Source of the DNA: a virus
Strand: one strand, 5' to 3'
Length of the DNA stretch: 35,787 nt
UHGV virus genome: UHGV-1329092
A program made the position numbers. Of the stretch, positions 1 through 3,000 are shown one piece after another. How positions within the stretch are numbered: position 1 is the first letter of the stretch; each line of letters opens with the position of its first letter.

Positions 1-3000
1 CTCCTGCCCCACCCCGGGCAGCTCCTGCCCCACCCCGGGCAGCTCCTGCCCCACCTGATTCTGGTTGAATTTGTTGTGCATTATCCAGAGTCAGATAAAA
101 AACGTTTGACTGGTTAAGCTCTCCTTTTCTTCTGAATTCCCTTTTCAAAAGCCCCATCTCTTCCAGTGCCCTAATGTGACTTTTTACTGTCGATCTGCTC
201 ACCTCACACTGGTCAGCGACATGTTGATATGAAGGCCAGCATTCGCCATTATCATTGGCGTTATCGGCAAGTTTAATCAGAACCAGTTTTCTCAGTGGGT
301 TGCCAACCTTTATATTCATGGCCTTAGCCATAAGATTCATGCTCATTTTGACTTCTCCGAAGTTTTGTACCTGTTAAGTATTTCTCTCAGTGGCACAGCT
401 ATTGCTGGATTAACCCCCTGATAAAACTGGTCACGTAGCACATCTTTTCGGTGATTAACGCGTTTATTTTCCTGCGTTTTTCGCATATAATTACCTCGTT
501 GGATGTTGTTAAAATTCCATTTGTATTTGATCAGAACGCTCGGTCTTGCACACCGGGCGTTTTTTATTGGTGAGTCCATCAAGCGCATACTTAAAAGCCC
601 TACTAATCGGACTGATGTCTGATGCCATTCCGAAAGCACACAAGACCGAAGCAATAAATCTCCAGTCCGTTCTGCTTATCTTCGATTCATGACAGCCAAT
701 CATCTTTGCCAGACCGCGCTGGGTAAGCGTTGACAGGTTGATGAGTAAATCTGTTTCTGCGCGATCAACGTCGCGCTGTGATAGTTTGCTGTAACTTGTT
801 TGTTCCATTTCTTACCTATTTCCATAGGTAAATAATCACTAATACTCATCTTTCGATGAGTGATTAATTAGTTACCGCGTTGTCGGCGGTGCAGATTGAT
901 AAAGAGCGGATCCGCTTATTAAGCGGTTTTGTGTTCCGGTGGGAACACGTCATCAAGACTGACTTTTGCGCCTAACTTGTTTAGGCACGCAACAAGAGCA
1001 CGGCATGTTTTAAGGTCTGGGAAGCGACGACCAGATTCCCAATGTCCGATAGCTCCCTGTGTGCATCCAACTGCCTTAGCAAGTGTTGTTTGAGAGATAT
1101 TCAGTGACTCTCGATATTTTCGTAGGTTGCTCATATGCCCTCCATAGTAACCATGAAACAATAATACGACATGTACTTTTAGAATGCAAGCAAAAAAAAC
1201 ATCTTGTGCATGGATGGTTTTAGTGCAGAGCGTAATAATAAGGGTATGAAAATGAAATGGTATGAACTGGCTAGATCCAGAATGAAAGAGCTCGGCATAA
1301 CTCAAGAGAAGTTAGCAAGATACGCCGTAAACCCTCGCCCAGTGCGGGCGGGGATATACGGCGTATCTTGCTAAAGCACACAACAATAACCCGACCTTAG
1401 TGTCGGGTTTTCTTTTTCCAAAATATAAACCCATTAAATACAAAGCGTTATAAAAAACCAATTATATTTGGAACATTTTGTGTTGACTCGATAAAGTACA
1501 AATCGTACTATTTAGCCATCAGCAGGAAGCTGGAAGCCAAACGGAAAAGATTGGCAGGCTCTTTAACTTCGATGGGGCGCTGACAAAGCGCAAACAGATA
1601 CCAAACGAGATGGGTTTGGCGGTGATGTGAATTGCAGCTGCAACGACAGCAACCAGAAGATCAGCATCTGGCGCATCACCACCAAAGCCATTTCACATGA
1701 GGAAAACATCATGACGGTAATCGTGTACGGAAAATCAACATTTGCAGGAAATGCCAAAACTCGCCGTCATGAGCGGCGCAGAAAGCTGGCCATCGAGCGT
1801 GATTCCATCTGCAACATCATCGATTCGATCTTCGGCACAGACAGTGAGGAAGCTGTTCAGGAAGAACCGAGAAAGCGTTTAAGTCTTTCTGAAAAAGCAA
1901 TATCACTCGGCATCATCAGTAAATCAAATACAGATGCGAATGGCGGAAGCGTTTGTTTGCCTGAAGTTGCACTGTATGCTGCTGGTTACAGGTCAATGAA
2001 ATCAATTACGGCGAGATAGAAATGACTAGCAAACAAGTATCATATAAATGCTATTGCCCTTTATGTGGAAGAAAATTCAGCGCCAAGGCAGCATGGAAGC
2101 ATATCAATGATTATCATCCAAAAGCATCAGAACGTGAGTTGATGATGATAAGAGATGTAAAACGAGAAAAAATTTCTTTCGCAACAAAGCCACTAAACGC
2201 CAACAAAAACGCAATATTGTATCAAATGCATCGTTCAAGTGGTCCAGATTATTCTGGAGGGCTTCCATCTCTTGGAAAGAAAAAATAACCACGCTCATGC
2301 TGGTTTTTAATGACATAAATAACCCTATTTACTACCGCAAGCCACGCAGTGAAATGGGTGTGACTTGTGTTGGTCGCCAGAAAATGAAATTGGGCAGCAA
2401 ACCACTTATTTGAGGTGATATATGGAAGAAGAATTTGAAGAGTTCGAAGAGCATCCTCAGGATGTGATGGAACAATACCAGGACTATCCGTATGACTACG
2501 ACTATTGATACAAATCAATGGTGTGGACAATACGAACGACGGCAATGATTGCCAGAGAACTTGGTAAACAGAATAACAAGGCTGCCTGATGGTGGCCTTT
2601 ATTTTTGGCATAAACAACAGAATAAATACTGCACTGTGTATTCATTCCAACGAGTGAATACACGGAGCAATGTCGCTCGTAACTAAACAGGAGCCGACTT
2701 GTTCTGATTATTGGAAATCTTCTTTGCCCTCCAGTGTGAGGGCAATTTTTTTGATGGAGGATATATGAGTGAAGTAACAGATTTAGTTGTTATTGAAAAA
2801 GCAAATGCAATGACTGTATTTCAGTCTGCCGACCAGATTGAAGAAATCCTTCAAAAGGTTGAACGTGAAGTTATGTCCTTTGTGCCTGATATCACAACGG
2901 CAAAGGGCAGAAAGGAGATCGCTTCTCTGGCGTATAAAGTTGCGCAGACGAAAACATATCTCGATGGTCTTGGCAAAGACCTTGTTGCTGAACTGAAGGA

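Follow-up and report, generated by a model that had tools for sequence, protein, structure and literature searches.

What became of the immunity repressor of the virus whose genome is recorded as UHGV-1329092, and where did the hairpin that stands in its place come from? At the position expected for a LexA/CI-type phage repressor, divergent from cro and upstream of pL and N, this genome has only a 42-codon open reading frame (ORF) that runs into a strong palindrome. Throughout, the window denotes the whole stretch of DNA analysed, 35,787 nucleotides. We find that the locus is very probably a cI pseudogene fused to a remnant of the left end (LE) of an insertion sequence (IS) of the IS200/IS605 family, similar to ISEc46. 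The best explanation overall, and one that we consider likely, is a dead immunity gene with a transposon-end scar in a lysogeny-defective phage.

The cI stub and its transposon-end remnant

Relatives with an intact gene were found by megablast. Phage Dewey encodes a 231-aa 'transcriptional repressor' at the same position, VT2-Sakai has an annotated cI with operators at the corresponding position, and an intact 231-aa LexA-type cI gene is present in 777 of 5426 complete E. coli genomes, with the hairpin junction in 0 of the 777. The ancestral temperate P22-like or lambdoid phage had this 231-aa LexA-type cI between the right operator (OR)/cro and pL. When aligned, the window equals Dewey up to ...GAGAAGTTAG and again from CTAAA(G/A)CACACAACAATAACCCGAC, the native cI terminator, the match resuming at CTAAA(G/A)CACAC, distal to a 603-bp gap. 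Between the two matching blocks, 55 bp occupy the place of 603 lost bp of cI. A search of relatives for an intact repressor, proposed in the initial annotation as a means of locating the deletion, thus placed the breakpoints at TTAG and CTAA. The features of the locus are as follows.

1246-1374, plus strand: cI pseudogene ORF, 42 codons from ATG 1246 to TAA 1372-1374, product MKMKWYELARSRMKELGITQEKLARYAVNPRPVRAGIYGVSC.
1312-1315, plus strand: left junction, TTAG on the top strand; native cI sequence (codons 23-24) and target or left cleavage motif (TAM) of ISEc46-type elements.
1316-1370, plus strand: 55-bp remnant replacing 603 bp of cI; LE of an ISEc46-like element, then the reverse complement of the first ~16 nt of that LE. 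Its order is a 17-nt 5' linker ending in the putative guide AAAC (1329-1332), a palindrome (1332-1353), ATATA and the inverted copy.
1371-1374, minus strand: right junction, TTAG on the bottom strand (CTAA on top), native and just 3' of the cI stop.
1312-1329 (TTAGCAAGATACGCCGTA) with 1357-1374 (TACGGCGTATCTTGCTAA): outer hairpin stem, an 18-bp perfect inverted repeat.
1357-1374, plus strand: right arm of the 18-bp repeat, the reverse complement of TTAG plus the first 14 nt of the LE; it holds the stop codon.
1332-1353: inner imperfect palindrome.
1388-1419, plus strand: native cI terminator, intact, with a GC-rich stem (1388-1409) followed by a T run.

The 42-codon ORF is real, with its start moved by 3 nt from the 1243 first given to the ATG at 1246; in relatives the annotated start corresponds to a second in-frame ATG upstream, at 1210. 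Native cI accounts for codons 1-24, and transposon-end remnant sequence for codons 25-42 with the stop codon. Dewey cI contains Pfam domains HTH_3 (residues 23-70) and Peptidase_S24 (residues 99-221) in its 231 aa. The window retains residues 1-36 only, at 97% identity, which leaves 14 residues of the HTH_3 match. The helix-turn-helix (HTH) domain is therefore incomplete, most of it having been lost together with the recognition helix, and tblastn found no C-terminal cI match to the Peptidase_S24 region anywhere in the window. The absence of a recognition helix and of a dimerisation/autocleavage domain, as initially described, is borne out. A Pfam search with the 42-codon ORF matched no family.

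The perfect inverted repeat into which the ORF runs is likewise real, and at 18 bp is stronger than the 15 bp first described. Folded as DNA, the hairpin reaches -37.3 kcal/mol (z = -9.2), and 0 of 200 shuffles folded equally well; its sequence occurs once in the window, where chance would give none. The top strand reads GAAG-TTAG, then CAAGATACGCCGTAAAC, the hairpin CCTCGCCC AGTGC GGGCGGGG, ATATA and CGGCGTATCTTG, and finally CTAA-AGCAC. The left junction is an exact joint of TAM and LE at the native cI TTAG (native cI sequence GAGAAGTTAGCTGAAG). The LE is native through GGGGATATA; uninterrupted native LEs go on as AGGCGAAAAGCCC, whereas here the sequence beyond GGGGATATA is the reverse complement of TTAG and of the first ~16 nt of the LE. 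The right junction, on the bottom strand, likewise reads TTAG followed by CAAGATACGCC, at another native TTAG. The CTAA there is native sequence, since the E. coli prophage that is 98% identical to the window has CTAA after its cI stop (CACTCTAAAGCACAC; Dewey has CTCTAAAACAC), the right-junction sequence of the prophage being CTCTAAAGCACAC. CTAA occurs 46 times in the 35.8-kb window, so that a random breakpoint falling on it would be rare. The terminator that had been noted after the hairpin is confirmed, and the sequence 1388-1419 is identical to that found 3' of the intact cI of Dewey and of the E. coli prophage. The hairpin would be a passive scar that leaves the native cI terminator and pL untouched.

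The origin of the scar was identified by BLAST. Among phages, the hairpin matched Klebsiella phage phiKp_30, an intergenic site in Providencia phage PSTNGR2lys, and the phage-plasmid RCS47, where the match sits just upstream of 'Transposase ISEc46, IS605 family'. Hairpin positions 1-52 matched at ~90-92% identity in 436 records of E. coli genomes and 600 of plasmids, the sites including E. coli chromosomes and Salmonella virulence plasmids. Of four inspected sites, three directly adjoin a tnpA gene that bears the annotation 'IS200/IS605-like element ISEc46 family', and tnpB ('RNA-guided endonuclease InsQ/TnpB') lies on the opposite side; the ptrB-yebE region of E. coli accounts for two of the three, and the other is on a Salmonella virulence plasmid, downstream of spvD. 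The fourth is a solitary element on a plasmid of Candidatus Fukatsuia symbiotica (2501-2564; TTAGCAAAATTCGCC...GGCAAATTTTGCTAA), without a neighbouring transposase and lying between a hypothetical gene and a PIN-toxin gene; apart from the window scar, it is the sole palindromised ISEc46-type LE that we found. One of the readings first offered for the hairpin, a small inserted or recombination-scar element, is therefore right, and the element can be named as a palindromised remnant of an ISEc46-like LE.

The boundaries of the intact IS were defined by an empty-site test, in which a left flank ending in TTAG was joined directly to the right flank and searched in the E. coli genomes. The ptrB-yebE flanks are contiguous as ...TTAG-ATGATG in 5025 of the 5426 genomes, so that insertion of the 1763-bp IS takes place 3' of TTAG and causes no duplication. 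The IS starts with C(G/A)A(A/G)AT... and ends with ...GCAGTCAC, and the first nucleotide of the window remnant is the LE start so defined. TTAG stands at the left junction in 13 of 14 aligned sequences, whose flanks are all different; the exception is the copy in cI of phiKp_30.

In the window scar, TTAG lies 17 nt 5' of the foot of the LE hairpin and AAAC directly precedes the foot. In the right end (RE) of the family, TCAC lies 9 nt 3' of the RE foot and GAAG precedes it. In IS608, the left cleavage site (CL, TTAC) precedes the foot of the LE hairpin by 19 nt on the 5' side, and the right one (CR, TCAA) follows the RE foot at a distance of 10 nt on the 3' side; a 4-nt guide lies 5' of either foot, the left guide (GL) for TTAC being AAAG (PMC3201880). 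Pairing of guides with the TAM and with its right-end counterpart (TEM) has also been reported (PMC10055086). By analogy, AAAC would be the guide for TTAG.

The remainder of such an element is missing. No RE hairpin with its TEM (...GCAGTCAC) was found in the window, and tblastn with TnpA and TnpB of ISEc46 and of an IS200/IS605 element from IncI1 plasmids gave no tnpA or tnpB there (E > 0.1). The AGTGC loop variant was seen elsewhere only in a multi-copy IS of Photorhabdus viridis, in a scan of genome contigs. An Rfam scan of the whole window gave no family at gathering score, and the papers found to mention ISEc46 give it in lists only. Other identities for the palindrome were discarded. A telomere-resolution or attP-like palindrome is ruled out by its asymmetric centre and by a sequence that is an IS end, and a repetitive extragenic palindromic (REP) or CRISPR repeat is ruled out because no similarity to either is known and all BLAST matches are IS ends.

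The sister phage phiKp_30 and the missing integrase

The window has its closest relative in Klebsiella phage phiKp_30 (Lederbergvirus, 33.7 kb), which matches 81% of a 24.5-kb query at 95.8% identity and is 97-99% identical around the cI locus. At the same position in cI it carries a 48-nt LE-hairpin-RE unit (1091-1138; CAAGATACGCCGTAAACCCTCGCCCAGTGCGGGCGGGGAGCAGTCAC) with a deletion larger than that of the window. This unit has the same LE 5' variant and AGTGC loop as the window, but joined to the RE tail (GCAGTCAC), and AACATTTTGTGTTGACTCG, belonging to pL, follows directly 3' of that tail. In Dewey and the E. coli prophage the sequence at that point is ATATTTAG followed without a break by AACATTTTG, which means that the RE in phiKp_30 adjoins DNA exactly 3' of another native TTAG. 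The equivalent of this site in the window, 1468-1471, just 5' of the pL -35, reads TTGG in place of the TTAG of Dewey and the prophage, so that the potential target motif is absent from the window.

The simplest reading would be that the common ancestor of the window and phiKp_30 had a longer element, with full LE and RE, in cI, because the LE variant and loop are common to both and the two copies together hold LE and RE. At 1083-1095 of phiKp_30, TCAC, an RE-type motif, replaces TTAG to the left of the LE, and the sequence resembles an RE-LE junction fused to cI at GAGAAGT/GAGCAGT. Speculatively, a tandem RE-LE junction followed by slippage between GAGAAGT and GAGCAGT could be the source of this TCAC.

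Two further 47-nt mini-elements occur in phiKp_30, at 5116-5162 and 6224-6270; both have a loop of the RE type, GACA, and are preceded on the left by TTAG. The copy at 6224-6270 (copy 3) lies within, and disrupts, an Arc-like ribbon-helix-helix gene close to where int is missing. The 47-nt unit is also found at several distinct sites in IMG/VR contigs, one of which holds 2 copies, and in plasmids, at 5 places in Serratia and 4 in Providencia and also in Arsenophonus, Edwardsiella, Vibrio and E. coli. It is a real and probably mobile gene-less derivative of the ISEc46-type family, and the 47- and 48-nt units are possibly among the smallest mobile elements known. Two inverted 47-nt units are ruled out as the source of the window scar, which keeps the LE-specific ATATA after the hairpin; the 47-nt units have no ATATA.

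A second transposon scar lies where the integrase would be expected. The pL operon ends at 6617 and the tailspike gene, on the minus strand, ends at 6768, leaving a 150-bp gap at the position of xis, int and attP, with these features.

6620-6712, plus strand: stub of an AP2-domain gene, 30 codons, matching the start of a 219-aa AP2-domain gene.
6691-6743, plus strand: RE remnant of a second, different IS200/IS605 element, 53 bp, ending in TCAA.

Klebsiella phage RCIP0114 has, 3' of its full 219-aa AP2 gene, first an ORF of 66 aa at the place of xis, without a Pfam match, and then a tyrosine integrase gene. In the window the AP2 stub runs directly into the 53-bp remnant, which is 98% identical to the RE of the IncI1-plasmid element just after its tnpB stop. 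In the 'minor intergenic region' of filamentous phage If1 and in phiKp_30 (3830-3922) the same 53 bp are also 98% identical, phiKp_30 having a longer remnant of the same RE at another place in its genome. Both deletions of the lysogeny module, in cI and at int, thus carry end remnants of IS200/IS605 elements. On the tailspike side, an exact 21-mer search for the native downstream sequence gave 0 matches; the three closest relatives inspected there (86-88% aa identity) have a different architecture, and homology stops at the stop codon.

The claim that the circle has neither integrase nor excisionase withstood direct searches. With Dewey Int and Xis as tblastn queries the window gave no match (E > 0.2), and a Pfam scan of 30 non-structural ORFs found no integrase, excisionase, recombinase or second S24-type repressor; where Pfam matches were found among these ORFs, they were to phage functions. 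An intact repressor elsewhere in the genome, which would have told against loss of immunity, was likewise not found in the window by Pfam or tblastn. With a stub lacking the recognition helix and the S24 dimerisation/autocleavage domain, and with int and xis gone, the phage would be unable to establish or maintain lysogeny and would grow only lytically. The original suggestion of a temperate P22-like phage that has lost lysogeny therefore holds at the level of sequence (24 native cI codons, no int or xis, no second cI-type repressor).

The decay differs between related phages. In phiKp_30 cII has been deleted via TCCA microhomology (~600-606; window equivalent 579-820), whereas cII is intact in the window. 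In Escherichia phage EC.P3 (33.4 kb, P22-like; 2040-2340) the same cI is cut after its N-terminal domain (...SSAPVKKQ), with unrelated sequence beyond and no IS scar, and this is an independent loss of the S24 domain. The differing states of cII and the truncation in EC.P3 suggest that the decay of lysogeny genes is recent and ongoing.

Formation of the scar

For the origin of the palindrome we tentatively favour, at a little under even chances, a route in which both TTAG-LE junctions were made and an inverted pair then collapsed. TnpA-type chemistry, supplied in trans by an IS copy of the host, would have made both junctions, most likely through two oppositely oriented insertions separated by 603 bp. 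Being unstable, this inverted pair would then have collapsed by slipped mispairing between the quasi-repeats TA(A/C)GGCG (TAAGGCG/TACGGCG) that flank the LE hairpin, leaving a small palindrome, as in the 'nearly precise excision' of Tn10. Somewhat unlikely, by our estimate, is a single IS insertion followed by two replicative template switches, which would leave the identity of the locus as cI stub plus LE remnant unchanged. The nascent strand would fold at the LE quasi-palindrome and copy its own 5' part to give the right arm, and by a second switch it would re-anneal at the CTAA microhomology, so that the body of the IS and the 3' portion of cI were bypassed. One insertion would be enough for this route, the hairpin of native LEs is already enclosed by an imperfect outer stem (ACGCCGTA ... 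TAAGGCG), and the sole base that differs from native LEs (ATATA-C-GGCG) is the exact complement of the left arm. However, fold-back predicts an arbitrary end for the copied arm, which ends exactly at TTAG/CTAA here and within 1 nt of it in the independent Fukatsuia element, and the two switches would have only 2-nt and 4-nt homologies to use. It is because the Fukatsuia LE, palindromised at another crossover point, yet also ends in TTAG...CTAA that we favour collapse of an inverted pair over fold-back.

We consider it very unlikely that the 55-bp palindrome is itself a mobile, non-autonomous, REPIN-like single-hairpin element with TTAG-LE on both strands, whether it entered a phage whose cI had been deleted by an unrelated event or caused the deletion via TnpA action. 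The 47-nt LE-hairpin-RE units of the family are clearly multi-copy (in phiKp_30, an IMG/VR contig, and Serratia and Providencia plasmids), the right boundary CTTG could pair with guide AAAC, and the Fukatsuia element provides a second palindromised example. The palindromised form, in contrast, is single-copy in the window, gave 0 matches in a pattern search of IMG/VR and the JGI metagenomes and 0 in the 5426 E. coli genomes, and was not seen elsewhere in the phage collection, which makes a proliferating element unlikely; moreover, the two known palindromes differ in their crossover point, as independent accidents would and copies of one unit would not. A broader proposal, unlikely though still a shade more credible, is that the arrangement TTAG/LE-hairpin-LE'/CTAA is the signature of an undescribed TnpA reaction or of a new 55-bp REPIN-like mobile element, and that IS200/IS605 elements with host TnpA are an active route of lysogeny-module loss in temperate phages. 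On this proposal TnpA would join element ends to a nearby TTAG on the same or the opposite strand, deleting cI and int and leaving end-hairpin scars. An assembly or library artefact, a fold-back chimera, would account for a right arm seen in the window only, palindromes being a known source of chimeric reads, but is highly improbable: the left half is independently present in phiKp_30, the right arm meets native CTAA cleanly and is followed by collinear native sequence, and the Fukatsuia plasmid has a comparable natural element. The least credible of these explanations is that the ORF or hairpin is functional as a mini-repressor, a regulatory RNA or DNA structure, or a terminator. The ORF does keep the native start region and OR, and the hairpin is very stable; yet only 14 HTH_3 residues are left, neither Pfam nor Rfam gives a match, the tail is translated transposon-end DNA, phiKp_30 differs in sequence after the same point in cI, and a terminator role is already filled by the native terminator downstream. 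The very small, unusual repressor entertained in the initial annotation is accordingly not supported, its 18 C-terminal residues being translated transposon-end DNA that belongs to no Pfam family.

Several points weigh against insertion of an inverted pair and its collapse in a lysogeny-defective phage. Phages, E. coli genomes, IMG/VR and JGI metagenomes yielded no relative whose cI contains a full-length IS, and none with an inverted pair; a pattern search for an IS-type insertion at the cI TTAG gave 0 matches in JGI metagenomes and IMG/VR; and the inverted-pair intermediate is hypothetical. CTAA at the right junction could have served as microhomology in a purely replicative event. To the left of the LE phiKp_30 has TCAC and not TTAG, which is explicable only via extra steps. 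The assignment of AAAC as guide draws on the analogy with IS608, and loss of lysogeny is read from gene content.

Relation to known systems and the rest of the genome

The nearest comparison is with ISEc46 itself, which has a tnpA gene for a Y1 HUH transposase and a tnpB gene. The LE linker, putative guide and subterminal palindrome are ~90-92% identical to it, and the junction lies 3' of TTAG without duplication, at the same boundary nucleotide as in the copies confirmed by empty sites. Unlike ISEc46, the scar keeps ~43 nt of LE, has no RE, tnpA or tnpB, and passes from the LE into an inverted copy of its own start. Palindrome-associated transposable elements (PATEs) are gene-less IS200/IS605 derivatives (PMC10055086, PMC3119063). 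Like them, the scar is short, lacks an ORF, derives from an IS200/IS605 end hairpin and sits at the target motif of its family, but it differs in having no RE tail or TEM (GCAGTCAC), two inverted TTAG-LE junctions, a single copy and a 603-bp deletion. When PATEs or miniature inverted-repeat transposable elements (MITEs) are defined by both ends, no ORF and several copies, the scar falls outside the definition, and the 47-nt unit of phiKp_30 and other sources falls within it.

Nearly precise excision of Tn10 and Tn5 reportedly proceeds by crossover at short direct repeats inside the inverted arms. References on its remnants, Ross, Swan and Kleckner 1979 and Foster et al. 1981, appear in the bibliography of bioRxiv 10.1101/2023.06.07.543989. 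The remnants resemble the scar in being small palindromes made from the two outer ends of an inverted-repeat structure. The ends here, however, come from a single-strand 'peel-and-paste' IS without terminal inverted repeats, the inverted arrangement must first arise, and adjacent host DNA (3' cI) was also lost. REP/REPIN doublets are mobilised by REP-associated tyrosine transposases (RAYTs), which are IS200/IS605-like Y1 transposases. They share with the scar two inverted short motifs with a conserved 5' tetranucleotide that form one long hairpin; unlike them, the scar has neither a RAYT/Y1 gene nor the GTAG motif and is single-copy. Clear-plaque or virulent derivatives of temperate lambdoid and P22-like phages are cI/c2 null mutants. 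In the window, as in these, the repressor is destroyed and cro, cII, N, Q and pL/pR are kept; it differs in the additional loss of int and xis and in the IS200/IS605 end remnants present at both deletions. Truncations of the same cI in EC.P3 (IS-free) and in phiKp_30 are another and a third case.

The components are each known: IS-inactivated repressors, gene-less IS200/IS605 derivatives and palindromic excision remnants. Their combination is unusual: a single hairpin bounded by two inverted TTAG-LE junctions, a second IS200/IS605 scar where int would be, and 47-nt units in several copies in a sister phage. The locus offers a concrete molecular history of the passage from a P22-like temperate phage to a sewage-isolated, apparently strictly lytic one, and bears on 'lytic' therapeutic Klebsiella and E. 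coli phages, such as phiKp_30, that are recent temperate derivatives. It also provides a testable case of 'peel-and-paste' transposons and their tiny hairpin derivatives reshaping phage genomes, and the palindromised LE and the 47-nt units are simple substrates for determining the minimum DNA that a TnpA needs. If TnpA does provide an active route of lysogeny-module loss, the 47-nt units (3 in phiKp_30) would rank with the smallest mobile DNAs known and would be spreading within the genomes of virulent phages.

The neighbours of the stub are those of a P22-like immunity region.

509-808, minus strand: cII, intact; Phage_CII (Pfam), E = 1.9e-34.
919-1134, minus strand: cro, intact; HTH_3 (Pfam), 97% identical to Dewey Cro.
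1483-1511, plus strand: pL-like promoter, TTGACT-17-TACTAT.
1690-2019, plus strand: N, P22-type (Pfam), 3' of the pL-like promoter.

The intact cII is a lysogeny-establishment gene without remaining targets. Pfam identified the following further genes.

3674-3898: Arf.
3895-4548: Erf.
5121-5648: Dam.
6396-6617: TraR/DksA.
24625-27094, minus strand: three KilA-N genes, two of them also with P63C or ORF11CD3 domains.
28846-29469: Q.
30300-31010, minus strand: Ant/Rha antirepressor-type gene.
32177-35083, minus strand: primase-helicase with intein-like insert, 968 aa, Toprim/AAA.
Several positions: NinB, NinE, NinF and NinH.

RusA and several other genes were assigned solely by homology to the phiKp_30 annotation. 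The KilA-N trio and the Rha/ANT gene are odd in a phage without a repressor. The window represents a circular genome opened within a 21-bp tandem repeat (CTCCTGCCCCACCCCGGGCAG), which occupies its ends (1-55 and 35690-35787). On the minus strand the repeat encodes a (GGAGAAR)n linker in an HTH_36 replication-initiator-like ORF that is continuous over the circle junction, and the 21-bp repeats may be origin iterons. The intein-like insert in the primase-helicase comprises matches to a Hom_end-associated Hint domain (residues 379-424) and to LAGLIDADG_3 (residues 579-632).

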